Virus record (IMG/VR): IMGVR_UViG_3300048854_000273
Span: 43,413 to 107,412 of that record
Direction: 5' to 3' (one strand)
Source: a virus
Taxonomy: Duplodnaviria; Heunggongvirae; Uroviricota; Caudoviricetes
Length of the DNA: 64,000 nt
The notes under the pieces were generated by a model that saw nothing but the letters and a program-made list of their open reading frames with translations, was not told where the DNA came from and did not search any database. Position numbers and translations under genes: made by a program. Positions 4,722-59,875 of this stretch are shown here, piece by piece (the first letter of the stretch is position 1; the number at the start of each line of letters is the position of its first letter).

Positions 4722-4760
4722 CGCGGTCCTCGATTACGGCTTTGGGGTGGGTAAAGGTCT

Positions 4761-6689: not shown

Positions 6690-6703
6690 AGTCAGTTTTG
6701 ACT
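6690..6703 (+). promoter_or_regulatory. motif AGTCAGTTTTGACT in divergent region
   Basis: 20 nt upstream of 6022..6669 start and 37 nt upstream of helicase ATG. Confidence 0.6.
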
Positions 6704-6740
6704 TATACTACGCCTAACTTATCGATATGGCAACCAAGCT

Positions 6741-9995: not shown

Positions 9996-10153
9996 GCTTT
10001 CATGGTGTCGTTCTCCCCCGTTTTTGACGGTCGGATTATAGACAGCCTCAGCGCCGAAATGGGCAAGGTGTAAGGATTGCCCAACACCTACCCAACTATG
10101 GGGCGCGAGCGATTCGGGGTGGCTGTCTATATTCATTCGGTTACGACTGAATA

Positions 10154-10658
10154 TGAGGGCAGCATGATCGAAGAATGGCGGGATGTGGTGGGCGCAGCGG
10201 GTCTTTACGAGGTGTCGAACCTTGGGCGAGTGCGGAAGGACGGCGGTCGCGTCATGGCGACTCAGCGGGTCTCCAAAGACGACGCTCATCGACGGGCGCG
10301 CCTGACCATTGCCGATAAGCGCGTGAAGCGACTGGTTCACGTTCTTGTTCTGGAAGCGTTTGTCGGGCCGCGGCCGCTCGGAATGGAAAGTTGTCATGAC
10401 GACGACGACCCCGAAAACAACGCTCTCTCGAACCTGCGATGGGACACCTCGCTCGGGAACAAGCAGGACGCTCAGCGGAACGGTCGCACGGCTCGGGGTG
10501 AGCGCATTGCACAATCAACCCTCACAGAGGCTCAGGTGCGAAAGATCAAGTCGGCGGCCGGCAAGAGCGAGCGTGAACTGGCTCGTGAATTCGGCGTCAC
10601 GCGCGGGGCAATTCAGGGCGTGAAGCGCGGCACCACGTGGGCGTGGCTGGAAGTATAA
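10154..10658 (+). CDS. HNH homing endonuclease (NUMOD4 + HNH + C-terminal HTH)
   Basis: YEVSNLGRVR (NUMOD4), CHDDDDPENNALSNLRWDT (HNH), ...LAREFGVTRGAIQ (HTH); GAGGG RBS. Confidence 0.75.
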
Positions 10659-10986: not shown

Positions 10987-11002
10987 CGTTTCACGTGAAA
11001 CA
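10987..11002. promoter_or_regulatory. canonical parS centromere-like site CGTTTCACGTGAAACA
   Basis: 15/16 match to the chromosomal parS consensus TGTTTCACGTGAAACA; perfect 14-bp palindrome GTTTCACGTGAAAC. Confidence 0.6.
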
Positions 11003-11015
11003 CTCAGTTTTGACT
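11002..11015 (+). promoter_or_regulatory. motif ACTCAGTTTTGACT abutting parS
   Basis: read directly. Confidence 0.55.
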
Positions 11016-11023
11016 ATCTCTAG

Positions 11024-11770
11024 TTACACAGAAAAGAGCGCTTGCACTTTCTTAGCTGCGTTCGACTCAGTGAGCGTGATTGAGTCGTCTTTACGACCCT
11101 TCACGACGTTGCAAATGTTCATAAAGCGCAACATTTGACGCGTGCTAGATGCTTGCGTGCTTGCGGTTGACGGTTCGCACATTTTGAAGCTGCGCACCGC
11201 TTCGGTTTGCATATCTTCACTAAAGACAACTTTATTTGAGAGCGAGATTTGCGAACCGCGATTAGACAGCGCTTGCAACTTCGTCAGATTACGCAGAATA
11301 GCGACCGTGTAACCGTCAAATACTGACGTCATACCGCATGCGAGAGCAAACACCGCTTTACGGATCTTTTGCGCTGCATAGATAGCGATGTAGTCGTGTG
11401 CGCGTGCATCGCTAATGGCGTATTGGCGCGACAGCGCTTCAAAGTCAATTTCAAGCTCAATGCAACGCTCAATAGCGATCAGAGCATTACGACCGCTCAA
11501 AGCGCTCAATTCAGCGTTCATGTTCTTTTTGAAGTTATCGGACGGTGCATTCACAATGCGCGTTTTGATCGATTCGAGAATCAGCGTTTGCATGCGAACC
11601 GCTTTATCTGCATTCGATTCAGTTTGAACCGGTGCAGCGCTTTCAATCGTCGTTTCGACTGCGAGCGCTTCAACCGTTTGCACTTCGTCTCGCGTGAGCG
11701 TTTCGACAGCTTGAACCGGTGCGTTCTTACGTGCGCGCTTTGCTTTCGTGACGTTTGCTTGTGCGTTCAT
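11024..11770 (-). CDS. hypothetical protein (248 aa) in a low-GC island
   Basis: ORF with distinctly lower GC than neighbours; flanked by parS (10987) and a half-parS TGTTTCACGTG (11783-11793). Confidence 0.5.
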   Translation of the reverse strand: MNAQANVTKAKRARKNAPVQAVETLTRDEVQTVEALAVETTIESAAPVQTESNADKAVRMQTLILESIKTRIVNAPSDNFKKNMNAELSALSGRNALIAIERCIELEIDFEALSRQYAISDARAHDYIAIYAAQKIRKAVFALACGMTSVFDGYTVAILRNLTKLQALSNRGSQISLSNKVVFSEDMQTEAVRSFKMCEPSTASTQASSTRQMLRFMNICNVVKGRKDDSITLTESNAAKKVQALFSV

Positions 11771-11800
11771 TTTTCGACTCTCAAAGTGTGTTGTGTTTCA

Positions 11801-11814
11801 CGTGTCAGACAGTC
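11801..11814 (+). promoter_or_regulatory. motif AGTCAGTTTTTACT
   Basis: 30 nt upstream of 11024..11770 start; preceded by half-parS. Confidence 0.55.
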
Positions 11815-11982
11815 AGTTTTTACTGTCTGTCTCGCTACAACGTTGCAGCGAGTAGAGACAGTATGACGACATATGAAACACATGTAAATATCTTTCGCAC
11901 GTATTTTCTAGAGTCGTTACTGGAGTTGTTTTTGCGCGGAACCGCTTGCAGGGCCGCTCGGGCGGGTGTAGTGGCGAGGGCT

Positions 11983-12058
11983 GGATGAGGACGCTCCTCA
12001 GTCAGGCGGGTGGATGAGGATGATCCTTGTCCTAGGGCGTGGATGAGGACGCTCCTCA
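11983..12058 (+). repeat. three direct repeats GGATGAGGA(CGCTCCTCA) at 11983, 12012, 12041 (exact 29-bp period)
   Basis: read directly; non-coding stretch that also contains CCTAGG x3. Confidence 0.6.
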
Positions 12059-12182
12059 CCCTGAGCCGCCCTAGGCCACGCCACGACCTCGGGTAACGGC
12101 CTAGGAGCTTCCCCAAGGGCGGCCTTAAAAATCCCGAAAGCGTGTCGGCGGCCTCTCCCGTTCCGACACCCTGGCCCTACCC

Positions 12183-12368
12183 TCAATACGCCTCCATCAC
12201 ACCCAGACGGCCGTTGGTGCGGATCTGGGCACGCAGGTGGTTGATCTCGGCCTCCTCCTGCTGCATCTCCAGCCAGTCGATCAACTGGTGCGGCTTCATT
12301 CCGCGGTATTGGGTGATCGACGGCTCGGCAGCTTCAGTGTGGATTTCGACAGGGCGGAGGTTCATGGT
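12183..12368 (-). CDS. small hypothetical protein (~61 aa)
   Basis: MRTTMNLRPVEIHTEAAEPSITQYRGMKPHQLIDWLEMQQEEAEINHLRAQIR; motif 11 nt upstream. Confidence 0.35.
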   Translation of the reverse strand, partial: TMNLRPVEIHTEAAEPSITQYRGMKPHQLIDWLEMQQEEAEINHLRAQIRTNGRLGVMEAY

Positions 12369-12379
12369 AGTTCTCATTT

Positions 12380-12393
12380 CAGGGTTTAAGTCA
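12380..12393 (+). promoter_or_regulatory. motif AGTCAGTTTTGACT
   Basis: 11 nt upstream of ATG 12368. Confidence 0.6.
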
Positions 12394-12554
12394 GTTTTGA
12401 CTGTATGTGGTGATACGGAATTAACGGGTAGCCATGCGGAAGATGCCGTAGGCCGTCTTGTAGGCTTCGCGGGGCGAAGCACCGGCCCGGCGAGCTCCGA
12501 GATACGCGTCACGCTCGATGGGTCGCAGCGAGCGAAAGGCAGCAGCAAGGGCGC

Positions 12555-12714
12555 TCATGCGTGCTCTCCCGGTGTGCGGTGTGCGTCACCCTGCACCCGT
12601 TTGATGACCCAGAGCAGCCCGTCGATTGCCTTGACCCAGGCGAAGGTGATCACGGCACCGGCGAGGATGACGAGAAGGAACGCGCAGATCCACTGCAGGA
12701 GGTCTTCGTTGTTC
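12555..12714 (-). CDS. small membrane protein (~53 aa)
   Basis: MNNEDLLQWICAFLLVILAGAVITFAWVKAIDGLLWVIKRV. Confidence 0.35.
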
Positions 12715-12735
12715 ATGGCGTGTGTTTCGCTGTTG

Positions 12736-12781
12736 TGTGAGCGATCAGTATCTCGACCGCTCACAGGGCTTGTGGTGGGTA
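12736..12781 (-). promoter_or_regulatory. hairpin TGTGAGCG-n14-CGCTCACA followed by CAGGGCTTGTGGTGGGTA (copy 1 of paired element)
   Basis: 8-bp perfect inverted repeat immediately 3' of the stop of 12783..13124. Confidence 0.5.
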
Positions 12782-12782
12782 G

Positions 12783-13124
12783 TTAAGCGGCGCTCAGTTC
12801 GGGGATCAGCATCGGCAGGCTGGTGACGCACTCGGGGTCGCATTGCAGGGCAAACGCGTCGGCAAGGGGCACACCGCGGCGACGAAAGGCGTTCAACGTG
12901 GCACTGACGCAGGCTTCGAGGTGCTGGGCATCGCGGTAGCGATCACAGACGGGCATAAAGGACTCGACCGTGAGGGCGCTACCGTCAAGCGTGAGCTTTC
13001 CAATGCGCTGGCCCTGCGCGTCATTGACGACGAGCACACAGGCACCGTTCGTGCGCTGATGCAGGCGGTAAAGACGGGTGCGGTGAGTGCGGTAGGCTGC
13101 GCGCTGTGCGGGGGTCGTTGTCAT
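12783..13124 (-). CDS. hypothetical protein (113 aa)
   Basis: ORF with coding-like composition. Confidence 0.45.
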   Translation of the reverse strand: MTTTPAQRAAYRTHRTRLYRLHQRTNGACVLVVNDAQGQRIGKLTLDGSALTVESFMPVCDRYRDAQHLEACVSATLNAFRRRGVPLADAFALQCDPECVTSLPMLIPELSAA

Positions 13125-13148
13125 CGTGTGTCTGCGTCGTTTGTTAAG

Positions 13149-13192
13149 TGAGATTGCAGTGTCGCAATCTCATACAGGGCATGTGGTGGGTA
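13149..13192 (-). promoter_or_regulatory. hairpin TGAGATTGC-n6-GCAATCTCA followed by CAGGGCATGTGGTGGGTA (copy 2 of paired element)
   Basis: 9-bp perfect inverted repeat immediately 3' of the stop of 13205..13399; 18-mer 17/18 identical to copy 1. Confidence 0.5.
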
Positions 13193-13204
13193 TCGGCTCG
13201 GCTC

Positions 13205-13399
13205 TCAGGCGAGGGCGTGCAACTGGACTTCGTAGCTGCGGCCGATCATGGCGACCGGGTCGTCGACGTCGGCTTCGAGCGGGATCAGGACGGCGGGGAT
13301 CGCAGCTTCGGAAGGCAGGTCAGCGGGGAACGGGTAGGTCACGTCGCACACGAAGGTGTCGGTGGAGATGTCGTAGTCTTTGATCTTGATGGTCAGCAT
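13205..13399 (-). CDS. small hypothetical protein (64 aa)
   Basis: ORF; motif 13441-13454 lies 41 nt upstream. Confidence 0.4.
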   Translation of the reverse strand: MLTIKIKDYDISTDTFVCDVTYPFPADLPSEAAIPAVLIPLEADVDDPVAMIGRSYEVQLHALA

Positions 13400-13440
13400 T
13401 TCTGTTCTCGGTTGCGTCGCACGTCGCGACAGACATCATT

Positions 13441-13454
13441 ATTCAGTTTTGACT
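13441..13454 (+). promoter_or_regulatory. motif ATTCAGTTTTGACT
   Basis: 41 nt upstream of ATG 13399. Confidence 0.5.
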
Positions 13455-13499
13455 GTGGCTTTACTGTGGGAATCGGCTCGGCGTTTCCCTAGCTCCCTC

Positions 13500-13730
13500 T
13501 CCGTCGGCCTAGGACGATCCCCTTGGCCAGCTCCTGCATTCCCTCACCCTGACACCCGAGCCGGCCTAGGCTCATCACCAAAGGGCGGCCTAGGTCACCT
13601 CCCGATCCGCCCTCGGAAACGTCATAAGGGTGTCGGCCGCGGCTCCCGTTGCCTTGGTGCTCGGCCTAGGGCGAACCCCGTGGAGTCTTCTGAAACTTGG
13701 GTAGGTGTGTCGGCGACGGCGCCCGTTCTT
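13500..13730. repeat. non-coding repeat cluster: CGGCCTAGG x4 (13508, 13565, 13589, 13665) plus GTGTCGGC..CTCCCGTT x2 (13630-13650, 13707-13727)
   Basis: read directly; no convincing ORF. Confidence 0.55.
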
Positions 13731-14016
13731 ATACTTCCCATACAGCTACAATTCGACTAATGAAGGGGTTGGGTTGAAGCTCAGCGCAGATGTAATGGAA
13801 GCAACGATCATCAGTAGCTAGGCTCTCAACTCCAGTGGCCCCTCACTGTCTCCAGGCTCATCACCCGTCAACCCTTTCTCGCTACGTTCATGCCTTCCGT
13901 TCTGTCCGTCAGGCAACCGGCCCCCTTCAATGCCGGCATCGCTTCTGTCCTGTTTTCTTCCCGACGACCCAGGCAGGGGTCTCATAGTCTTGGAGCGGGG
14001 AGTGCTCTTGCAGCGG

Positions 14017-14030
14017 TAGGGATCATACTC
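14017..14030 (+). promoter_or_regulatory. motif ACTCAGTTTTGACT
   Basis: in the non-coding region 13760-14190. Confidence 0.5.
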
Positions 14031-14195
14031 AGTTTTGACTGTTGTCGTCAATGCAGGTTGGGAGGCAATGTGTAAGTGTTGGCGGGCGCGCAACGATTTT
14101 CGTCGCTGTATAGCTATACCGCCTCCCCTCTCCCCGCACCTTTACGTCTTATCCTTTCCATACCGTAAGCCGCACCCCTTGCCGGAGCCACTGCT

Positions 14196-14540
14196 ATGGA
14201 CTGGATATACATCTCCTACGTCGTCATGATCGCCGGCTTACTGGGGCTGATCTGGTCTACGTGGCAGCGTAGGGTGCGCTTTGCGGTTTATCACAGCATT
14301 CCTCCCCACCCGAATAAGGTGCCCAAGTCAGATGAGCTTGCCGATCTGAAACCCGAGCTGGCGGGGTCGCCTACTGTCGGGGATCGCGGAACAATTGCGA
14401 TGAGGATCTTCCTGACGGTCCTGGTAGCCATCGCCGCTCTCTACGGTATCTTCCTCGCCCACGATAGTGACCCTGCTGTAAAGGAATGGTCCTTCGGGGC
14501 TATCGGCACTCTGCTCGGCTTCTGGCTTAGACGGGATTGA
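14196..14540 (+). CDS. membrane protein (114 aa)
   Basis: two or three hydrophobic segments, high GC3. Confidence 0.4.
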   Translation: MDWIYISYVVMIAGLLGLIWSTWQRRVRFAVYHSIPPHPNKVPKSDELADLKPELAGSPTVGDRGTIAMRIFLTVLVAIAALYGIFLAHDSDPAVKEWSFGAIGTLLGFWLRRD

Positions 14541-14544
14541 GCGC

Positions 14545-14805
14545 TTACCAGCTCCCCTCACACCCTGTGGGTTCGTCCAGCCCCGGATCGAGGTATCTGA
14601 TCAGGCTGAAGTCGAATGGCTCGAACCCTGTGCCGATGATCATCTCGTCTGTCCAGTCTCGGTTCTCCAGTCCAGTGCCCCTGCGAAAGTCTCGGTCCCT
14701 TACCCAGCCTTCTGCCCAGTCCTTCCCTCTGCGGCTCCACTGGATCTCGAACCACTCAGCATTCTTGCGGCCGGTAACGCGGATCTTCACTGTGTTGCCC
14801 ATCAC
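14545..14805 (-). CDS. hypothetical protein (86 aa), C-terminus ...CEGSW
   Basis: ORF; ATGA overlap with the upstream gene. Confidence 0.45.
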   Translation of the reverse strand: MMGNTVKIRVTGRKNAEWFEIQWSRRGKDWAEGWVRDRDFRRGTGLENRDWTDEMIIGTGFEPFDFSLIRYLDPGLDEPTGCEGSW

Positions 14806-15047
14806 CAGGTCTCGCCGGCTGACTGCGGAATGTCCTTCGCGCCTGACTTGATCAATACGGCTCGGGAGACGTCGCTCATCCGGTGCCGGGTTCGACCTTC
14901 CATACTGTCGTCGCGGGAGCCTACGCGGACGTGGAATCCCTCGATCCGCATTTCTTCGCCTTCGGTGGTGTCGGGGTCGCCGTCGTATGCCATGACGATG
15001 TATTCGTCCTCGTTGCTGTCGTAACCGATGATCTCGATTGTTGCCAT
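14802..15047 (-). CDS. hypothetical acidic protein (81 aa), C-terminus ...AGETW
   Basis: ORF. Confidence 0.45.
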   Translation of the reverse strand: MATIEIIGYDSNEDEYIVMAYDGDPDTTEGEEMRIEGFHVRVGSRDDSMEGRTRHRMSDVSRAVLIKSGAKDIPQSAGETW

Positions 15048-15392
15048 TGGATTGCTCTCGCTATGTGTTGTCTGATTCTCTCGCGCGACTCATGGAATGT
15101 CTTCGGGGACCGGGATGGCTTCGACGCGTTTAAAGACGTTTTGAGCGGTCGGGCTCTTTAGATGCGCAGAGTCACGTCGAGCGTCTTTGTCGCGGTTTCT
15201 GACGCGTTCTAGACGGTTCCTGACGTGCTTTGTCTTGTTCGGTTCAGTGCTGCGATGCTTACTCAACCGGGCGTTGAGGTAGCTTATACATCGGGGCGGG
15301 TTGGCCTTATAGGGCGAGCCACGGTTTGTTGTTTACATTCAAAGACTTAGATCGTGCGGCCTAGGGCTCACGCCTTGGACGGCTAATTCAAC

Positions 15393-15422: not shown

Positions 15423-15761
15423 TCACAGATCGAGGATCATTTTCACCGCAAATTTAGCGGCATCAAGTTCTTCCTCTGTAGCCCGCTCCCCGTTGAACTT
15501 GAACTCCCTCGCCTTGAAGGAAAGCGTGGTTATCTGGTCGACAAGGGCAACGCCTGGACGTGCGAGACTGGACAGCGGAATCTCCGTCTCCCACCCGCGC
15601 ACCGTGGAGGTGATTGGCAGCCCAATGATCCGGCCGGTCAGTTCGTTTATGTCCTGCGGACTGAGCACTACAACGGCTCGATACCCGTCCTGTTCGTTAC
15701 CCTTGCTCGGCCCGATGTAGAGCCGAATAATGTCGCCAGCTTCCGGTATTCCGTTTTGCAT
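15423..15761 (-). CDS. mazF: MazF/PemK-family endoribonuclease toxin
   Basis: GDIIRLYIGPSKGNEQDGYRAVVVLSP...GVALVDQITTLSFKAR aligns with E. coli MazF (DLIWVDFDPTKGSEQAGHRPAVVLSP...GVALADQVKSIAWRAR). Confidence 0.8.
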   Translation of the reverse strand: MQNGIPEAGDIIRLYIGPSKGNEQDGYRAVVVLSPQDINELTGRIIGLPITSTVRGWETEIPLSSLARPGVALVDQITTLSFKAREFKFNGERATEEELDAAKFAVKMILDL

Positions 15762-15767
15762 TCGTAT

Positions 15768-16055
15768 TTACCATTTGTCGAATCGCGTTGGATCGTCGGA
15801 ACCCCCGAGTTCCGAACCCTGCGGCTCGCCAAAGTCGATCGTCTCATGCGGCACAAGCTGGCGATCACGGAGCTGCTGCAAATACCGCTCGCGTGAGAAC
15901 CTCCTAATTGCCTTGTGCGGACGGATCAATACCTTCCCGTCCTGCACTTCGACGTCTACCTCCTGACCCTCCGAGAACGCCACCTCACCGGCGACGCTCG
16001 CGGGAATCCGAACCGCAAGGCTATTACCCCAACGCTTCAGGGTTTGAATAGCCAT
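15768..16055 (-). CDS. mazE: MazE-type antitoxin (AbrB/SpoVT fold)
   Basis: MAIQTLKRWGNSLAVRIPASVA vs E. coli MazE VKRWGNSPAVRIPATLM; C-terminus DFGEPQ...RFDKW vs DWGEPKDKEVW. Confidence 0.75.
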   Translation of the reverse strand: MAIQTLKRWGNSLAVRIPASVAGEVAFSEGQEVDVEVQDGKVLIRPHKAIRRFSRERYLQQLRDRQLVPHETIDFGEPQGSELGGSDDPTRFDKW

Positions 16056-16166
16056 CAAACTCTCTCCATCAGTGACGCGACCGGGAGGAGCCCGGTTCCC
16101 CTTCGTCTTCGATCCCTCAGCACACACGTAAGGAAGCTACGTGTCATTTTTTTATGTTTATACATC

Positions 16167-18000: not shown

Positions 18001-18519
18001 TTAGTGAGTGGTCGGATGGGTCTTGCCCGCGTGCTCGCGGATCGCGTTGAAGATCGCCTCAGCGAACTCTTCCGGGCTGGCATCGGCCCGCATGCTGATG
18101 CTGCCGATCGGCACGAACTTGAAGCCAAGCGTTTCGTGCGAGCTTGCCGGCTGCTCGGCCATGCCCTTCAGTTCCGCGAAGCCGGCCTCGTCGCGCTGCT
18201 CGGAGAATGAGCGCACGGCCGCCTCCTGGTTAGCGCGACGCTCGTTGAGGAATTCCTGGATGGTCTGCGGGCTCGGCGCGGGATTGACTGGCTCGCGGCT
18301 AGTCATCTCCAGGCGTTCGACTTCGATGCCCAACGCCTCACGCACGGATGCATCAATAGTGCCCACCCCTTCAGCCAGCATGGCGATGTGTTGGAGCGAC
18401 AGCGTGGCCTTGCCAGTCATCACGGCTTCGAGCGCGAGCGACGCAACGACGCCGTTCAGGCTTTTCGTGGCTACGCTCAGGTTCGTCAGGATGGGCGCGT
18501 TCGAGATCGTTTTGCTCAT
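18001..18519 (-). CDS. hypothetical protein (172 aa)
   Basis: ORF. Confidence 0.5.
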   Translation of the reverse strand: MSKTISNAPILTNLSVATKSLNGVVASLALEAVMTGKATLSLQHIAMLAEGVGTIDASVREALGIEVERLEMTSREPVNPAPSPQTIQEFLNERRANQEAAVRSFSEQRDEAGFAELKGMAEQPASSHETLGFKFVPIGSISMRADASPEEFAEAIFNAIREHAGKTHPTTH

Positions 18520-18605
18520 GTGGTGGTGCTCCTTGTAAGTTGCGCTTCGTTGCGCGGTTTCGATATGTGTATTGTCGCGAGCAGTTCGCGGGGTTAGTCG
18601 GTGGG

Positions 18606-18803
18606 TTAGTCGGTTCCCGACGCGTTACCCTTGCTCGACGGCGACAGGACGTAGCCGCCTCGCCGATCCTTTGCCTCCATAGCTTCTGCAAGGCTGGCGA
18701 ACCGCTCGACGCAGGCGTGGTGATCCAGGCCATCCTCGACGAGCGTCCACTTCGTTTCGTGCCAGAGCCGGACAGGCGCCTGTTGCTGGTGCCAAGTGCT
18801 CAT
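18606..18803 (-). CDS. small hypothetical protein (start taken at MSTWHQQQ)
   Basis: ORF. Confidence 0.35.
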   Translation of the reverse strand: MSTWHQQQAPVRLWHETKWTLVEDGLDHHACVERFASLAEAMEAKDRRGGYVLSPSSKGNASGTD

Positions 18804-21747: not shown

Positions 21748-22048
21748 TTTTGAATCTCCGAATGTATGAAAAAAGTGTGTTATCGCTGCAACGTTTCTAA
21801 TGCTACGGATCAATCAGAGGATTTAAAACTGACTGCTTAAAAGTTCCCGCTGACCGTCTTTTGCTGCTGTCTCGCGTTCGTTGCTGCGATGTATGAATAT
21901 TAAAGATTGACTGTTGGAGTCGTGGTGGGCAACGGCAAGGAAATGCAGGCGCTTTTCGGTGAATGAGCGAGCGCGTGCGGCGCGCGCGAATAGCACGCGT
22001 GGTGAGGGGTGTGGTCAGGCTAGAATGGGCGCTTTTAAGGAGACCAAG

Positions 22049-25164: not shown

Positions 25165-25635
25165 TCACTCCCCCGAGACCGGAAAATGCCACGCGCCAGA
25201 GTGTTCGGTGGCGGGATTCGGGTAGTTCTTCGTGGTCAGCAGTTTGCGCATCCGGTCGGCGAACTCGTCAAGGCTACGAGCGCCGCACCCCAAGCCAGAA
25301 AGGTGGTCGAAATCGCTCTGGATCACACGGGCAAGACCCGGTTCCAGTCCGGTCATGGCGTGGAAATTCTCGCGTCCGATAACTCGCGCCAAGTCAGCGG
25401 TATCGCCGCCTAGCTTGCGACGCGATGCAACATGGTCCAGTTGCTCGTCCGTGAAGAAAGTGCCGATTGCGCACATGCAGGAAGTGCCGTCCCGGCGCTT
25501 GCAGCGATATGTGGCATGTGCAGCCGCACTGATCCGACCGGTGTCCAGATCCTGCAGGATCTTTTTGATGGCGTCGTGCTTCGTGGCCGGCACGATGTGA
25601 CCGTTGATGTTGATGACGTTGTAAGCGCGGGGCAT
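25165..25635 (-). CDS. hypothetical protein (start taken at MPRAYNV)
   Basis: ORF. Confidence 0.45.
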   Translation of the reverse strand: MPRAYNVININGHIVPATKHDAIKKILQDLDTGRISAAAHATYRCKRRDGTSCMCAIGTFFTDEQLDHVASRRKLGGDTADLARVIGRENFHAMTGLEPGLARVIQSDFDHLSGLGCGARSLDEFADRMRKLLTTKNYPNPATEHSGAWHFPVSGE

Positions 25636-25859
25636 GTGCCTCTCCGTGTTTGATTGCGTTGATGTAATTGTCTCGACCCGACGATGGGGAAACTGCGGGA
25701 ACACGCGCTCCCGGAATGGGTTGCCGCTTACTGCAATCTGTTCGTGTAGCGAGCGATCGACAGGTCGTTTTGGGTCTTCATGTCGGCGATCGGATCGGAG
25801 ATCACCAGCGAGCCATCTGAGGGGCGCACCATCAGGTTTGCGCTGTGAATGTCCAACGC

Positions 25860-41023: not shown

Positions 41024-41037
41024 ACTCAGTTTTGACT
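41024..41037 (+). promoter_or_regulatory. motif ACTCAGTTTTGACT
   Basis: 7 nt after the nrdA stop; followed by hairpin+U5 40995-41013. Confidence 0.55.
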
Positions 41038-41043
41038 GTTTTA

Positions 41044-43345: not shown

Positions 43346-43359
43346 AATCAGTTTTGACT
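43346..43359 (+). promoter_or_regulatory. motif AATCAGTTTTGACT
   Basis: 40 nt upstream of the nrdA ATG. Confidence 0.55.
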
Positions 43360-43380
43360 GTTACTCTATATGAGCCGAAA

Positions 43381-43914
43381 TTACCAGGCGTCGCCGGCAG
43401 CAGTCACGGGCTGGTCGCGATTGATCGGTGATGTGCTGACGGGCGCAGGGGACGGCTGCGTCATGTATTGGCTCTGGAAGTCTTCCGGCGACAGATAGCG
43501 CATCGCGTCGGCATCGTGGTTGTGCCAGTCAGTCCAGTCATGGGGCCGGCCCGTCGAGGCGGGATTAGGCACGGCGATCATCTTGACCATGCCGTCCAGA
43601 CCCTTGACCTCTTTCCAGCGCAGCGTGGGCCGCTCCTCATGCGGGCAGGCTTTGGGCGTGGCACACGACGCGTCGAGCGTCGTTTCCATGGTCGCCATGG
43701 AGACATGACGGTCGAGCTTGATCTTGCCGCATTCAACGCAGTCGGCGCAGCCTGCACTGAGCAATGCATCGGCGACTCTCTGCATCTCGCGGCGCTCGCG
43801 CGCAAGGGCGGTTAATCCCAAGGTCTCAACTTGGCTGATCGGCATGCGAAAGCGCGTGTTTTTGAGCAGGGTCTTTTTGCGTTCAGCAATAGAATGATCG
43901 GCGAAGGCGCCCAT
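43381..43914 (-). CDS. hypothetical Cys-rich protein (177 aa)
   Basis: ORF; motif 39 nt upstream. Confidence 0.45.
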   Translation of the reverse strand: MGAFADHSIAERKKTLLKNTRFRMPISQVETLGLTALARERREMQRVADALLSAGCADCVECGKIKLDRHVSMATMETTLDASCATPKACPHEERPTLRWKEVKGLDGMVKMIAVPNPASTGRPHDWTDWHNHDADAMRYLSPEDFQSQYMTQPSPAPVSTSPINRDQPVTAAGDAW

Positions 43915-48582: not shown

Positions 48583-48596
48583 AGTCAGTTTTGACT
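48583..48596 (+). promoter_or_regulatory. motif AGTCAGTTTTGACT forming the whole spacer between the SleB-like stop and the sbcD RBS
   Basis: minus-sense read: TAG-TGTAGAT-AGTCAAAACTGACT-GGAGGAATC-ATG. Confidence 0.65.
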
Positions 48597-48603
48597 ATCT
48601 ACA

Positions 48604-53947: not shown

Positions 53948-53961
53948 AGTCAGTTTTGACT
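53948..53961 (+). promoter_or_regulatory. motif AGTCAGTTTTGACT
   Basis: 29 nt upstream of the GTG at 53918 (107 nt upstream of ATG 53840) of the SSB gene. Confidence 0.6.
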
Positions 53962-53979
53962 ATCCTTCGACAGGCAAAA

Positions 53980-55078: not shown

Positions 55079-55092
55079 ACTCAGTTTTGACT
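55079..55092 (+). promoter_or_regulatory. motif ACTCAGTTTTGACT
   Basis: 6 nt after the dnaE stop; followed by hairpin 55044-55064 then GAGGAG RBS of 53980..55014. Confidence 0.55.
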
Positions 55093-55098
55093 ATTGCC

Positions 55099-58000
55099 TC
55101 AGTTAAGACAATCAGCCACCTTTTCAAATACGGCTGCCAGGATCTCGGCCTTCGATGTGTCGAACAGGATCTGCTGCGCGTTAATGCCGCACACGATGCT
55201 CGCGTCCAACGTCTTGTCGAAGATCACCTTGCCGGCGAGTTCGGCCGTGCCGCCCTTGATGCCCGGCACGAAGTGCTTGATCGACGCCGAGCCAAGCGCC
55301 ACGATCACCGCGGGCTTGATCAGCTCCAGCTCGCGCTGAAGGAAGCCCTTGCAGCCGTTGATCTGGGCGTTCGAGAGGAACTTGTCGCTCTTTTTCGCCT
55401 TGACCAGCGACGTGTAATAGCCCTCTGCCGGATTGAGTCCCGCCTGCTTGATCGCTTCCTTGATGAAGTCGGCCGCATCCCCTTCAAGCATCTTGTCGGC
55501 CTTCTCCTCCTGCCAGCTCGGACAGTCGGACACGACCATGAACTTAACCGTGTGCTTGGCTCGCACAGTCGGGTGTGGCTGACCCGCCAGATCGCAGCCC
55601 TCGCAGTTCTTGTATTCCTGCACGAGGCTGATCACCTTTGCACGCAGGAACGTTTCTTTCAGGTCTGTCGTGCGATCGGCCTTCACGCTGTCGATGATGA
55701 GGCCGCCCATCAGTTCGGTCTGTTCACGGCGTCGGTCCGGGTGTCGCGCAGGTTTTGCCCCTGGTTGCAGCGGCACGAGGGCGCCGACTTTATCCAGCCC
55801 ATCGCGGACCTTGCTGTTGACCTTCGAGCCCTTTGCTTCCGTGATGTTCAGGAACTCATCCATGTCCTTGAACGTGCCGCCGTTCTGGCGCCGCAGCTCC
55901 ACAATGCGCAGTGCCGTGTTCTCGGAGATACCCTTCACGGCCGAGAACGGCGCGAGCAGGTGGTTGTCGTCGGGAATCGTGAAGCGCTCGCGCGACAGGT
56001 TGATATCGGGCGGCAGCACTTCGATGCCGAACTCACGCGCTTCCTCAACGAGACTCGGCAGCTTTTCTTCCTTCACGATCGACATGCAGGCGGCGAAGTA
56101 TTCCGCCGGGTAGCGCACGCGCACCCACATCGTCCAGTAGGAGATGAGCGAATACTCCACCGCGTGCGAGCGGTTGAAACCGTAGCCTGCAAAGGCTTCG
56201 ATCTTGTCGAACAGCTTGCCGGCGGGGATTTCGTCCATGCCCGACTTGGCGAGACAGCCGTCGACCCACTTCTGTCGCATTTCGGCCATCTTGTCCTTGT
56301 CCTTCTTGCCCATCGCTTTGCGCAGGTGATCCGCTTCAGCGCGCGTAAAGCCCGCCAGATCGACCGCCACCTGCATGACCTGTTCCTGATAGACGATGAC
56401 GCCGTAGGTGTCCTTTAGCGCCGCCTCCATGTTCGGATGATCGTAGTAGACAGACTTGGCACCTTGCTTGATCTGGATGAAGTCGTCCATCAGCCCCGAG
56501 TCCATTGGACCTGGCCGGTAAAGCGCGGTCGCGGCGGTTACGTCCTCGAACGTGAGCAGCCCACCCATCGCGAGATTGCGCAGCAGTGCCTTCATGCCGC
56601 CCGAGTCGAACTGGAACACGCCGGTTGTGTCACCCTTGCCGAACGCAGCCATAATGTCTGGCTCCTCCAGCGGCAAGTCCAGGTAGTCGATTTTCTTGCC
56701 GTGCCGCTCCCCGATGTAGGTCTTGGCAATCTCCAGCACGTCGAGCGTGGAGAGCCCCAGAATATCCATCTTGACCAGGCCCCAGTCCTCGACGACGCGC
56801 TTGTCCCAGTTCACGACCGGCGACTCGCCGCGCGTTTCAACGACTGCCCGGTTGATCAGCGGCTCGCCTGCGACAACCACACCGGCTGCGTGCTGCCCGA
56901 ACGAACGCATGGCCCCTTCGAGCTTGAGCGCATGGCCCCAGACCTCCGGGTGGGTGTCACGGAACTTCTCCAGGTCAGCAACCGCCTTCGCCGCTTCGGT
57001 GAGCGTGAAGGAGTTGCCGTGCTCTTTCGGCACGAGCTTGGTCGCGGCCAGGTCCAGGTTCGACAGACCCCACACGCGCCCCGTGTCGCGCAGCGCCGAT
57101 GCAGAGGCGAGCGTCGAGAAATTGGAGATGCCGGCGACGCGGTCGGCGCCGTATTTGCCGGTCAGATATTCAATCACCAGATGGCGCTTGCTCGACATGA
57201 AGTCCAGGTCAGCATCGGGCAAATCCAGACGCTCGGGATTGATGAAGCGCTCGAACAGGAGGTTGAAGCGGATCGGATCCACGTCCGTGATGCCGAGCAG
57301 ATACGCAACGAGCGAGCCGCCGACCGAACCGCGGCCTGGCCCGACGATAATGTCGTTCGCCTTCGCCCACATGACAAGGTCTTCGACCAGCAGGAAGTAG
57401 CCGGCGAAGCCCATTTTCTTGAGCACGCCCAACTCATACTGGAGCCGCGTCTTGTATTCAGGCATGAGCGACACGGGCGGCAGATAGCCGAGCACCGGAT
57501 ACGTGAAGCGCCGCTTCCAGCCCTCAATGCACTTCCTGCCAAGCGTGACGAACTCGTTCTCGGCCATTGCGGGCAGCGAGACCGGGTGTTTCTTGAACTC
57601 GTAGCCGCACTTCGCCGCGAGCTTCTCGACGTTGGTCAAGCCAGCCAGCCACAGATGTGGCTCATGCACGCCGTAGAACCGCTTCACGCGTGTGGCGGCC
57701 GCCTTCAGCCGCTCGATGACGTGCTTGGGCTCGGCGAAACCAAAGTCGCGCACGTGCTGGATGGGTCGATACGAGACGTCCATCTTCGTGTTCGACGTCA
57801 CTGCGCCCAGCACGTCCAGGCTGTCCGCGTCGGTGTTCTCGCGATAGAGCGTCGGATAGTTGACGATCGTCTGGACTTCGTGGACGCGCGCGGCCTTCAG
57901 CGCTTCGGCGTTCAGAGTGTCGAATAGCGGCGTGTTGATCGGGACGAGCTCCACCAAAAAGTCGTCCCTGAACGTCATGTTCAGCCGTAGCGCGATATCG

Positions 58001-58464
58001 AACGCTTCCGGGTGGTGGAACAGGTTGAAGAAGTCGCCCGTTGTCACCACGACGCCTTCGAGCTTCAACACGTCCTCGAGCCCGACGCGCGACACGTAGT
58101 AGAAGTAGTCCGGCGAGTTCGCTTTCGACAGCAGCTTGATCAGTCCGGCGACACCGCGCTCGTCCTTCGCATACACCTTCAGGGTGTAGCCGCGGTTCGG
58201 CTTTTCCTTCTCGCCCGACGCCTTCGGCGGCTTGCGGTAGGTGGGATCGTCGACCACGCGCACCGCACATCCGATGATCGGCTTGATGCCGGCTTTCTTC
58301 GCGCGCTGCGAGAAATCGACCATCGCGTGCAGGCTCATTTCATCGACGAGGGCGACGGACTCGTAGCCCAGCTCCTTCGCCTTGCTGACGATATGGTCGA
58401 CCTGCAAGAGTGACTTGCCGATCGAAAAGTCGGAGCGCACCGCGAGGGCATGTCCGAGATTCAT
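55099..58464 (-). CDS. dnaE: DNA polymerase III alpha subunit (DnaE-type, PHP + Pol-beta-like palm)
   Basis: 1121 aa; N-terminal PHP domain; conserved DnaE blocks (GPGRGS, LLFERF, YRPGPM). Confidence 0.9.
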   Translation of the reverse strand: MNLGHALAVRSDFSIGKSLLQVDHIVSKAKELGYESVALVDEMSLHAMVDFSQRAKKAGIKPIIGCAVRVVDDPTYRKPPKASGEKEKPNRGYTLKVYAKDERGVAGLIKLLSKANSPDYFYYVSRVGLEDVLKLEGVVVTTGDFFNLFHHPEAFDIALRLNMTFRDDFLVELVPINTPLFDTLNAEALKAARVHEVQTIVNYPTLYRENTDADSLDVLGAVTSNTKMDVSYRPIQHVRDFGFAEPKHVIERLKAAATRVKRFYGVHEPHLWLAGLTNVEKLAAKCGYEFKKHPVSLPAMAENEFVTLGRKCIEGWKRRFTYPVLGYLPPVSLMPEYKTRLQYELGVLKKMGFAGYFLLVEDLVMWAKANDIIVGPGRGSVGGSLVAYLLGITDVDPIRFNLLFERFINPERLDLPDADLDFMSSKRHLVIEYLTGKYGADRVAGISNFSTLASASALRDTGRVWGLSNLDLAATKLVPKEHGNSFTLTEAAKAVADLEKFRDTHPEVWGHALKLEGAMRSFGQHAAGVVVAGEPLINRAVVETRGESPVVNWDKRVVEDWGLVKMDILGLSTLDVLEIAKTYIGERHGKKIDYLDLPLEEPDIMAAFGKGDTTGVFQFDSGGMKALLRNLAMGGLLTFEDVTAATALYRPGPMDSGLMDDFIQIKQGAKSVYYDHPNMEAALKDTYGVIVYQEQVMQVAVDLAGFTRAEADHLRKAMGKKDKDKMAEMRQKWVDGCLAKSGMDEIPAGKLFDKIEAFAGYGFNRSHAVEYSLISYWTMWVRVRYPAEYFAACMSIVKEEKLPSLVEEAREFGIEVLPPDINLSRERFTIPDDNHLLAPFSAVKGISENTALRIVELRRQNGGTFKDMDEFLNITEAKGSKVNSKVRDGLDKVGALVPLQPGAKPARHPDRRREQTELMGGLIIDSVKADRTTDLKETFLRAKVISLVQEYKNCEGCDLAGQPHPTVRAKHTVKFMVVSDCPSWQEEKADKMLEGDAADFIKEAIKQAGLNPAEGYYTSLVKAKKSDKFLSNAQINGCKGFLQRELELIKPAVIVALGSASIKHFVPGIKGGTAELAGKVIFDKTLDASIVCGINAQQILFDTSKAEILAAVFEKVADCLN

Positions 58465-59227: not shown

Positions 59228-59875
59228 TCAAAGAGTGTCGATAATGCGGCGCACTTCCTGGGCCGCTGCTGCCATGTCGCGCGTGCCGACGTCCTTCTTC
59301 ACCAGGCGAATGAACTTGCAGATGAAGCCGATGTTGACGCCGGCGGCGCACCGCGTGCGAATGCCGATGCTGCGGCTGTAATCGCAGTGCGCCTGGTTCT
59401 TCCTGATCTCCTCCAGCAGCGCGGCCGGTGGGCTCACGATCCACTCTACGATCAGCGCCGCGAGCGGGCTCATGCCCTGCACCGCCTTCTCGATCTGGAG
59501 CGCGCACTGTTGCCGGTCCAGAATTTCCTCCGGCGTCATCGCATCGCTCGGGACGGTTTCTAGAAGGTTGGAGCTTTCGTCGTCGCCCATGCCCTCGATG
59601 CTGAACACGCCGTTCTCGCGCTCCTCCTCACTGCTCTCAGCCTTGCGGTTGATGCGGTTGTAGGCTGCGGTGCCGAAATATGTGGTGAAGGCGAAGCCCT
59701 TGCTCGGGTCAAACTTCGCGTGCGCCAGCAGGAAGGCTTCACGAACGTCGGCGAACACGTCGTCGTATTGGGTGGAAGCCTCCAGGTCCAGGAGACGCCC
59801 ATAGCACTTGCGTGCTATCTGGTGGACGAATCCCAGATTCCCCTGGTAGCACTCGACAATGTCGGCGCTATACAT
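59228..59875 (-). CDS. RNA polymerase sigma-70-family factor (regions 2 and 4; ECF-like size)
   Basis: region 2: YQGNLGFVHQIARKCYG...FDPSKGFAFTTYFGTAAYNRINR; C-terminal HTH-like region; 215 aa. Confidence 0.65.
   Translation of the reverse strand: MYSADIVECYQGNLGFVHQIARKCYGRLLDLEASTQYDDVFADVREAFLLAHAKFDPSKGFAFTTYFGTAAYNRINRKAESSEEERENGVFSIEGMGDDESSNLLETVPSDAMTPEEILDRQQCALQIEKAVQGMSPLAALIVEWIVSPPAALLEEIRKNQAHCDYSRSIGIRTRCAAGVNIGFICKFIRLVKKDVGTRDMAAAAQEVRRIIDTL

Follow-up and report, generated by a model that had tools for sequence, protein, structure and literature searches.

Two short intergenic elements, here called A and B, lie 411 bp apart on a 64,000-nucleotide stretch of viral DNA (Caudoviricetes; IMG/VR record IMGVR_UViG_3300048854_000273, positions 43,413 to 107,412), to which we refer as the window. 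Each consists of an 18-mer and an adjoining inverted repeat. We favor, with moderate confidence, a reading in which A and B are paralogous composite cassettes, each joining a promoter for the downstream gene to an overlapping RNA hairpin for the upstream gene, within a plastic accessory block of small genes.

Anatomy of Elements A and B

On the plus strand, the 18-mer of element A reads CAGGGCTTGTGGTGGGTA (12764-12781) and that of element B reads CAGGGCATGTGGTGGGTA (13175-13192). When both strands of the window were searched allowing up to three mismatches, these were the only two matches found. Shuffled controls predicted 0.05 matches, and none of 100 shuffles contained two or more; a pair of copies is far above chance expectation.

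The original prediction, made from the letters of this DNA, had described two 18-mers identical at 17 of 18 positions and about 410 bp apart, each accompanied by an inverted repeat and placed just after a minus-strand stop codon. Coordinates, identity, and separation were all borne out, and both inverted repeats are present (TGTGAGCG-n14-CGCTCACA at 12736-12765 and TGAGATTGC-n6-GCAATCTCA at 13149-13172). The stop of the gene at 12783..13124 lies 1 nt from 18-mer A, and that of the gene at 13205..13399 lies 12 nt from 18-mer B. The statement that no U-tract follows and that these are not classical terminators was correct as well: on the gene strand, the sequence 3' of the hairpins is CACAACAG and CTTAACAA, with no T-run, and a terminator scan was empty at both sites, leading us to reject an intrinsic terminator.

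Since nearly all genes of the window are on the minus strand, the elements are to be read on that strand, where they also sit 50-55 nt upstream of the next ATG (at 12716 after A and at 13124 after B). The label "post-stop" thus tells half of the story: stop codons do adjoin the elements, but these are equally "pre-start", ending 20-24 nt before the next ATG. The order on the gene strand is stop codon, 18-mer (TACCCACCACAWGCCCTG), hairpin, CA-rich leader without a Shine-Dalgarno sequence, and ATG. Similarly, the 18-mer had been taken as the conserved part, and it is indeed nearly invariant between A and B, but the likeness continues without gaps through the hairpin loop into the leader. The gapless alignment comprises the 18-mer (positions 1-18), 11 variable bases, a hexamer located in the loop (positions 30-35), and CTCAC at positions 41-45. 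The features of the locus are as follows.

12717..12782, minus strand: cassette A, the whole intergenic sequence from the stop codon of g113 (12783-12785) to the ATG (12716..12714) of a gene for a 53-aa membrane protein (g53).
12764..12781, minus strand: 18-mer A, TACCCACCACAAGCCCTG on the gene strand; cassette positions 1-18, or about -41 to -24 if the hexamer is a -10 element.
12736..12765, minus strand: hairpin A, TGTGAGCGGTC-GAGATACT-GATCGCTCACA, with 11-12 pairs, one of them G.U.
12747..12752, minus strand: -10-like hexamer GATACT, cassette positions 30-35, in the loop of hairpin A.
13125..13204, minus strand: cassette B, the whole intergenic sequence from the stop codon of g64 (13205-13207) to the ATG of g113 (13124..13122).
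13175..13192, minus strand: 18-mer B, TACCCACCACATGCCCTG on the gene strand.
13149..13172, minus strand: hairpin B, TGAGATTGC-GACACT-GCAATCTCA, with 24/24 bases identical in the relatives L003 and L018.
13158..13163, minus strand: -10-like hexamer GACACT, which is the loop of hairpin B; TGC stands just before it, resembling the TGn of an extended -10 element.
12783..13124, minus strand: g113, a 113-aa gene between cassettes B and A.

Leaders that are CA-rich and lack a Shine-Dalgarno sequence are a feature of the block genes (..ACACACG-ATG and ..ACACC-ATG, at 12714-12735 and 13122-13148), and are found also in the relatives L003, L009, L012, and L016. Clear GGAG sites are found before replication genes of this phage, which suggests that the accessory genes of the block initiate translation in a different way.

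Homology to the Promoter Region of the Operon

The architecture of A and B recurs in P1, the promoter region of the operon, which precedes the first gene of the block and itself follows a long stretch of non-coding DNA.

13400..13476, minus strand: P1, operon promoter region, with CCGA, the 18-mer homologue TTCCCACAGTAAAGCCAC (13472..13455), and AATAAT (13443..13438).
13456..13443, minus strand: palindromic motif ACAGTCAAAACTGA of P1.
13430..13416, minus strand: leader hairpin of P1, GTCGC-GACGT-GCGAC.
12391..12404, minus strand: P4, the next copy of the ACAGTCAAAACTGA motif, which closes the four-gene block holding A and B.

The layout of P1 (CCGA, TTCCCACAGTAAAGCCAC, eleven bases, AATAAT) is that of A and B, and the three align without gaps. 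The flank GAGCCGAGCCGA of cassette B is common to B and P1, as is GCCGAGCCGAT..CCCAC. With copies of the palindromic motif on either side of the four-gene block (13443-13456 and 12391-12404), A and B fall within an operon.

The eleven bases of P1 belong to the palindromic motif A[CT]AGTCAAAACTGA(C)TATAAT. In its general form, A[CT]AGTCAAAACTGA(C)TAT(AAT), i.e., ATAGTCA-N4-TGACTAT, about 35 copies of this motif occur in the window. Almost all of them precede genes and share their strand, and the motif often continues into TATAAT. Judging from this distribution, it is likely the main promoter/operator signal of the phage. Since a few copies (such as that at 48585) adjoin a ribosome-binding site, the motif may act as an operator and not as part of the core promoter. 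Some of the copies are the following.

53950-53963, 55081-55094, 48585-48598, 43348-43361, 41026-41039, 14029-14042, 11813-11826, 11004-11017, and 6692-6705, minus strand: examples of the palindromic motif.

Palindromic repeat units of another kind, CGGCCTAGG and CCTAGGCCG, occupy the non-coding flanks of the small-gene block (13480-14200, 12097-12124, and 15357-15384), and such units precede many cassettes in the relatives.

A Fixed Register in 25 Cassettes

We aligned 25 cassettes from the window and from seven contigs of related metagenomic phages, namely, A, B, P1, and 22 more, one of them on a Paraburkholderia contig. The related contigs had been collected by an IMG/VR search with neighboring proteins, by homologue searches, and by looking up the encoding contigs. 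When the cassettes were anchored solely on the first base of their 18-mer equivalent, all 25 held the 18 + 11 + 6 layout. In the hexamer at offset 30, an A at position 2 and a T at position 6 occur in 25/25 cassettes, and an A at position 4 in 22/25; at no other offset from -20 to +70 does the A2/T6 pattern reach 8/25. The hexamers are AATAAT (7), GACAAT (6), GACACT (3), GAGAAT (3), GATACT (2), TAATAT (2), GAACAT (1), and GAAAAT (1).

The mean pairwise identity varies along the cassette as follows.

Positions 1-9: 0.71.
Positions 15-18: 0.70.
Hexamer, positions 30-35: 0.70.
Spacer, positions 19-29: 0.39.
Flank, positions 36-46: 0.36.

The spacer is taken by several unrelated sequences across the cassettes. 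All members are on the gene strand, and the distance from the end of the hexamer to the start codon (locatable in 21/25) is 29-52 nt, mostly 29-40 nt, with predicted leader lengths of 22-45 nt.

In promoters of the sigma-70 family, -11A and -7T are the positions that the sigma factor reads as flipped-out bases. Positions 2, 6, and 4 of the hexamer correspond to -11A, -7T, and -9A, respectively, and the equivalents of -11A and -7T are present in 25/25 cassettes at offset 30 only, at a fixed distance from the upstream block. As far as sequence can tell, the cassettes are built like a promoter family, with a recognition block placed upstream of a variable spacer and a -10-like element.

The upstream block is variable, and the 18-mer represents one of its versions, alongside TAGCCGCAGCAAGCCCTC, TTGCCGCAGTAAGCCCTG, and TACCCGCAGTAAAGCCAC. 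In one cassette of a relative (L014_P1), the 18-mer form is joined to an operator-type spacer in the same register (TGCCCACCACAACGCCTT + AGTCAAAACTG + AATAAT). By this comparison, the 18-mer is interchangeable (allelic) with the upstream block of the operator-type promoters. It would thus be the upstream block of a tripartite promoter-like cassette, homologous to the main promoter region of the operon and defined by the blocks 1-9, 15-18, and 30-35. The original prediction had listed binding by a protein that recognizes the 18-mer among its candidate functions. The alignment supports a conserved recognition-type element, for which a protein reader is still the likeliest explanation, probably sigma-bearing RNA polymerase or else an activator.

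A search for further copies, called for by the original prediction, gave a mixed outcome. No other exact 18-mer occurs in the window, nor in the related contigs except at orthologous sites, but degenerate members in the same register are found at 13472..13438 (the P1 copy), 25701..25667, and 21931..21897, together with a looser one near 18571. The members outside P1 were found by a profile search.

25667..25701, minus strand: family member TTCCCGCAGTTTCCCCAT + CGTCGGGTCGA + GACAAT, in the same register; the hexamer ends 31 nt before the ATG at 25635, and a GGAG Shine-Dalgarno sequence is present.
21897..21931, minus strand: family member TGCCCACCACGACTCCAA + CAGTCAATCTT + TAATAT, in which an operator-like spacer follows the upstream block in its CCCACCAC form.
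18571..18612, minus strand: looser member ..ACCCACCGACTAACCCC..GCTCGC-GACAAT, with a spacing one base longer, upstream of the ATG at 18519.

A further 18-mer-like site, TACCCACCCCAAAGCCGT at 4743-4753 (plus strand)/4744-4761 (minus strand), matches the 18-mer family at 13/18 positions. The site falls within the start of a coding region, no in-register hexamer follows, and it is probably a chance match or a remnant.

Hairpins

Folding of the gene strand predicts 12 pairs (one G.U) for hairpin A, the 72-nt cassette having a free energy of -20.6 kcal/mol and z = -4.8. Hairpin B has 10 predicted pairs, with z = -1.65 for its 86-nt segment and z = -5.7 for the near-identical orthologue of that segment in a related phage. 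In all predicted folds the 18-mer is unpaired. Across four phages, 97.6% of cells in hairpin A are paired: the outer 6 bp are invariant, pair 8 is AU, AU, GU, and GC on the gene strand, and pair 9 is GC or GU.

Nearly all of the stop-abutting cassettes have one stable hairpin, whose placement relative to the conserved blocks varies. It surrounds the hexamer in the A and B types and lies upstream of the hexamer in three other cassettes: L016_8119, in which ACCCGCAG of the 18-mer itself pairs with the spacer, L009_X (positions 11-27), and L010 (positions ~9-25). The L009_B and L011 cassettes lack an internal hairpin; there, the preceding stop codon is followed by a hairpin of its own, likewise devoid of a U-tract. 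In the P1-type cassettes, a 5-bp hairpin begins 4-7 nt past the hexamer and is 100% paired in ten sequences, with two double-compensated pairs; this fits a 5'-terminal leader hairpin, with the start site between hexamer and hairpin. As to the A/B-type hairpin, we infer an RNA hairpin that serves the transcript of the upstream gene, through attenuation or 3' protection.

An RNA 3'-end role for the hairpins, as first suggested for these elements, is still plausible from the sequence. A stronger version, in which the elements act purely at the RNA level, the hairpin blocking 3'-5' exonucleases or marking a processing site, the unpaired C-rich 18-mer binding a protein, and no promoter being involved, seems to us unlikely. 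It would agree with the abutting stop codons, the stable hairpins next to an always unpaired 18-mer, the occurrence of the G.U intermediate on the gene strand, and the other post-stop hairpins of the relatives, which likewise lack U-tracts; the variable position of the hairpin relative to the other blocks also suggests an independent RNA function. However, it leaves unexplained the fixed 18 + 11 + 6 register and the invariant A and T of a hexamer lying in an unpaired loop, as well as the homology of the 18-mer to the upstream half of P1, which follows a non-coding stretch and not a gene. In addition, L009_B has the 18-mer-like block and the hexamer without the hairpin.

The composition of the unpaired segments raises a related alternative, namely, a Rho-dependent attenuator or an antitermination site like lambda nutR/tR1, where C-rich, G-poor unpaired segments flank a hairpin in an early operon. 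The 18-mer is 50% C and unpaired, the leader is CA-rich, and the elements lie within an operon, downstream of P1, between short early-type genes. Yet neither a boxA consensus nor a boxB-type hairpin (5-bp stem, pentaloop) could be recognized in the sequence of A and B, and the C-rich stretches fall far below the typical length of a rut site. The elements gave no Rfam match at gathering or E-value thresholds, and no tRNA was found. Since such a site would account neither for the invariant hexamer nor for the likeness of the 18-mer to a region upstream of P1 that would not be transcribed, we regard this explanation as most improbable.

Alternatively, the inverted repeats could be operators of a dimeric repressor overlapping the -10 element, as in the Aca-type autoregulation of anti-defense operons, the RNA hairpin being irrelevant. 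Palindrome B, in particular, is perfect (9 + 6 + 9), centered on the hexamer, and identical at 24/24 positions in three phages with diverged flanks and neighboring genes; the outer 6 bp of A are invariant, and elsewhere the phage does use a palindromic motif at promoters. This explanation is nonetheless decidedly improbable, because the arms of A and B differ in sequence and spacing (24 vs 18 bp from center to center), so that one protein could not read both. Furthermore, in the inner arms of A the bases change but the pairing persists, with G.U pairs that would be mismatches in a symmetric DNA site, and in other cassettes the hairpin is located elsewhere.

Nor did we find a helix-turn-helix gene in the block. 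The product of g113 matches nothing in Pfam or PHROG and has only 5 homologues, and its AlphaFold model (predicted local distance difference test score, pLDDT, 75) gave no significant PDB fold match and no match to a DNA-binding fold. No regulatory role could be assigned to g113, given this lack of Pfam, PHROG, and PDB fold support.

Relatives and Cassette Shuffling

In the relative L003, whose g113 is 70% identical, both 18-mers are found at orthologous sites, hairpin B is fully conserved, and hairpin A shows compensated changes. L003 and the window have different genes before B and after A. Cassette A thus precedes different genes in the two phages, while cassette B precedes g113 in both and another gene in the Paraburkholderia contig L018, where the core of the hairpin is identical and the stem is extended to 11 bp. 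The same cassette therefore stands before different genes in different phages, a sign of gene shuffling.

The number of cassettes varies accordingly from relative to relative: none in L004, L012, and L013, where no A/B cassette intervenes between P1 and the conserved membrane-protein gene, 2 in L003, 3 in L009, and 5 in tandem in L016, where one cassette precedes every small gene of the block. Four cassettes were found in L010, a more distantly related phage; all have RATCCRNC as positions 1-8, carry GAAAAT, GACACT, or GAAACT as the hexamer (positions 30-35), and precede an ATG by about 35-40 nt.

These data also bear on the notion that A and B are non-functional recombination scars, i.e., decaying duplicates of P1 left behind by the insertion of gene cassettes. 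The exact 18-mer is confined to this locus, the cassettes are clearly homologous to P1, and their overall identity between phages (0.78-0.81) only slightly exceeds that of neighboring coding DNA (0.72-0.80). Decay, however, would not be expected to conserve 25 cassettes in blocks, to keep the A and T of the hexamer invariant while the spacer is replaced by unrelated sequences, to preserve hairpin B unchanged in three diverged phages, or to retain a cassette before every block gene in L016; we find the scar explanation very unlikely.

Broader searches yielded little. A blastn search with the region 11000-15000 gave no match in phage or plasmid collections. Scanning IMG/VR with the exact 18-mer pattern returned only a chance match inside a DNA polymerase gene (L001); the 18-mer plus TGAG returned the known relative and two Streptomyces-like coding matches (L006 and L007), and a CCGCAG-variant pattern returned none. 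Scans of genome contigs with a protein and with the P1 leader pattern gave no matches, and a metagenome scan gave just one 2-kb contig.

Proposed Mode of Action

According to the promoter-hairpin reading that we favor, the 18-mer would be an upstream recognition block (about -41 to -24) read by the sigma subunit of RNA polymerase or by an activator. It would be followed, after 11 variable bases, by the -10-like hexamer, for which the consensus is (G/A)A(C/T)A(A/C)T. The predicted start of transcription is close to the conserved CTCAC, at about 12738-12740 in A and 13149-13151 in B, which would give a CA-rich leader of 22-26 nt without a Shine-Dalgarno sequence.

The inverted repeat overlaps this putative promoter and would be transcribed only in read-through RNA from the upstream promoter. 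In such RNA it would form a stable hairpin just past the upstream stop codon, probably attenuating read-through or protecting the 3' end. A constrained hexamer may be tolerated because it is located in the hairpin loop, the hairpin being squeezed into a short spacer. Since the cassettes share sequence, they would also serve as homology patches for gene gain, loss, and swapping between related phages.

Several observations weigh against this interpretation. There is no -35 hexamer at the distance typical of sigma-70, and a consensus promoter scan calls neither A nor B, which makes an activator or a non-host sigma factor likely. The hexamer opens with G or A instead of T, and of the A/B pair only B has the TGn of an extended -10 element (several relatives have it too). 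The shared register may be partly inherited rather than selected, because the cassettes are mutually homologous. As for the hairpins, the covariation in A is not significant (4 sequences; 248/500 shuffles do as well), and B has none: its sequence is the same in the three phages, as would be expected of a sequence-specific protein site and equally of overlapping constraints. Finally, L009_B retains the conserved blocks without a clean hairpin.

A bolder version can be formulated, in which about 30 nt are dual-coded, as a 3' hairpin in read-through RNA and as a DNA promoter with its -10 hexamer in the loop of an inverted repeat capable of extrusion. Its activity would hinge on structure or supercoiling, and the phage's own sigma factor (59228-59875), not the host sigma-70, would recognize it along with the CCCACCACA block. 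We consider this version quite unlikely.

We also compared the elements with other known signals. A sigma-54 promoter was rejected on sequence grounds. The GCCGATA flank resembles the -10 element of a sigma-28 promoter, but there is no TAAA at -35; a promoter of the extracytoplasmic function (ECF) type was discarded because positions 24-29 are less conserved than 30-35. The stems (9-12 bp) and loops (4-8 nt) do not match an N4-type hairpin promoter, which has a 5-7 bp stem and a 3-nt loop, and no giant virion RNA polymerase was seen among the window proteins scanned, the window being part of the genome. The stems are too short for T7-like RNase III sites. A target of P1 c4-type antisense RNA was dismissed in the absence of a complementary copy on either strand. 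Finally, as regards an integron attC site, the GCTTAAC before A is a coincidence of the stop codon, B does not have it, and neither element has GTTRRRY after the hairpin; general scans of the window proteins turned up no integrase.

Phage Context and a Candidate Sigma Factor

The window belongs to a large phage with a G+C content of about 60%. It encodes a fusion of the DNA polymerase III (PolIII) alpha subunit with uracil-DNA glycosylase, CobT/CobS-like proteins, a class I ribonucleotide reductase (RNR), SbcCD, RecA, a gp32-like single-stranded DNA-binding protein, ThyX, and a UvsW-like helicase, together with ParB-like proteins, a MazE/PemK pair, and an HNH endonuclease. The nearest cultured relatives, at only ~45% PolIII identity, include Rhizobium B1VFA/RHEph10, Stenotrophomonas BUCTxx99, Pseudomonas nickie, and SSU5-like phages. 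A neighboring 248-aa protein has a 55% identical homologue on a Paraburkholderia sp. contig and 29% identical homologues on ~105-kb Acinetobacter plasmids, thus indicating a Burkholderiaceae phage-plasmid-like lineage; the host of this phage or phage-plasmid-like element is probably a member of the Burkholderiaceae.

One gene of the window deserves attention in relation to the cassettes.

59228..59875, minus strand: divergent sigma-70-family factor of 215 aa (Pfam Sigma70_r2, 27.8 bits vs a cutoff of 24; phrog_351).

This gene is located between the PolIII-alpha and CobS-like genes, and its product scores below the cutoff for TIGR02937 (ECF). We regard it as a candidate reader of the non-canonical promoters.

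Other features of the window are as follows. The PolIII-alpha protein (55099-58464, minus strand) carries its uracil-DNA-glycosylase-superfamily domain at the C-terminus, at residues ~970-1070. The MazE antitoxin/PemK toxin pair (15423-16127, minus strand) belongs to the phage accessory region, and L014 has PhdYeFM/YoeB instead. The HNH/NUMOD4 homing-type endonuclease gene (10077-10658, plus strand) is on the opposite strand, ~2 kb from the cassettes.

Before the gene for the 248-aa protein, a non-coding region (11830-12180, minus strand) contains a long GTGTCGG..CCGACAC hairpin and CCTAGG-containing repeats, followed by an A-rich stretch and a promoter. This layout is conserved in L012 (1150-1720), L013 (3283-3678), L014 (9469-10003), and L016 (9382-10003). 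At 11982-12058 there are three to five copies of GATGAGGA(N4)TCCTCATCC with a 29 bp spacing, and the whole looks like an iteron-type replication origin or a partition site.

Relation to Known Systems

In our assessment, the elements are not of a new kind and come closest to the shuffling cassettes of T4-type phages. In T4-like myoviruses, the promoter-early and promoter-middle stem-loops (PeSL and PmSL) are composite promoter plus stem-loop cassettes that lie between orphan genes (ORFans) and mediate modular shuffling (Arbiol et al. 2010, PMC2839356; Comeau et al. 2014, PMC4122927). Like PeSLs, A and B are short intergenic cassettes that reach from stop codon to ATG and join a putative promoter to a stem-loop, filling the gaps between g64, g113, and g53. 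The repeats stand before small ORFans in a plastic region, as the tandem array of L016 illustrates, and the genes next to them have been inserted, deleted, or replaced from one close relative to another. A PmSL has a regulator box upstream of the -10 element in place of the -35 element, and this seemingly applies here as well.

The differences are also considerable. The lineage is PolIII-alpha/CobST/RNR phage-plasmid-like, not T4-like. There is no near-consensus sigma-70 promoter (TTGACA-N17-TATAAT), positions 6-12 reading ACCACA or CAGTAA; the -10 element is (G/A)AYAMT instead of TATAAT, and there is no AT-rich upstream region. Although the ATG is present, A and B lack a Shine-Dalgarno sequence (no GGAG); the member at 25701 has one. 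The A/B stem-loop wraps around the -10 hexamer rather than standing just upstream of the promoter, and has no G-run/C-run stem; in L016_8119, L009_X, and L010, the stem-loops lie upstream of the hexamer. Because of these differences in lineage, promoter, Shine-Dalgarno sequence, and stem-loop placement, we would say that the cassettes work like PeSLs without being members of that family.

Three other systems share individual traits with the cassettes. Morons are reportedly autonomous promoter-gene-terminator units found in lambdoid and other phages. As in our case, a small accessory gene is accompanied by transcription signals of its own on either side and may be missing from a related genome. 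A moron, however, is as a rule inserted singly and has a canonical sigma-70 promoter and an intrinsic terminator, whereas here a family of homologous cassettes is reused in tandem, with hairpins that lack U-tracts.

With extended -10 or activator-dependent sigma-70 promoters, the cassettes share the invariant -11A and -7T, the TGn of B and several relatives, a fitting distance to the start codon, and an upstream block where class II activators or sigma region 4 make contact. They differ in having no recognizable TTGACA-like -35 element at 16-18 bp, a G or A as the -12 base, and an upstream block that starts at about -41. The lambda nut/tR1 arrangement (boxA-rutA-boxB-rutB) offers a conserved linear box followed by a hairpin in an early operon, with C-rich unpaired flanks, but A and B match neither boxA (CGCTCTTA-like) nor the boxB consensus, and their 18-mer is homologous to DNA upstream of a promoter, which would not be transcribed.

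For the annotation of this uncultured phage group, the cassettes, if confirmed, would provide a model, CCGA-TWCCCRCMR-N5-CC-N13-RAYAMT, with which transcription units and gene-cassette boundaries could be located. They are also candidate sites, amenable to testing, for a phage-encoded sigma factor or activator. The dual-coded version, if true, would represent a new promoter class for the poorly known Burkholderiaceae phage-plasmid-like elements. If our favored reading is confirmed, cassettes of the PeSL type, acting at once in regulation and as recombination linkers, would not be peculiar to T4-like myoviruses but would recur in an unrelated lineage with a non-canonical promoter grammar.

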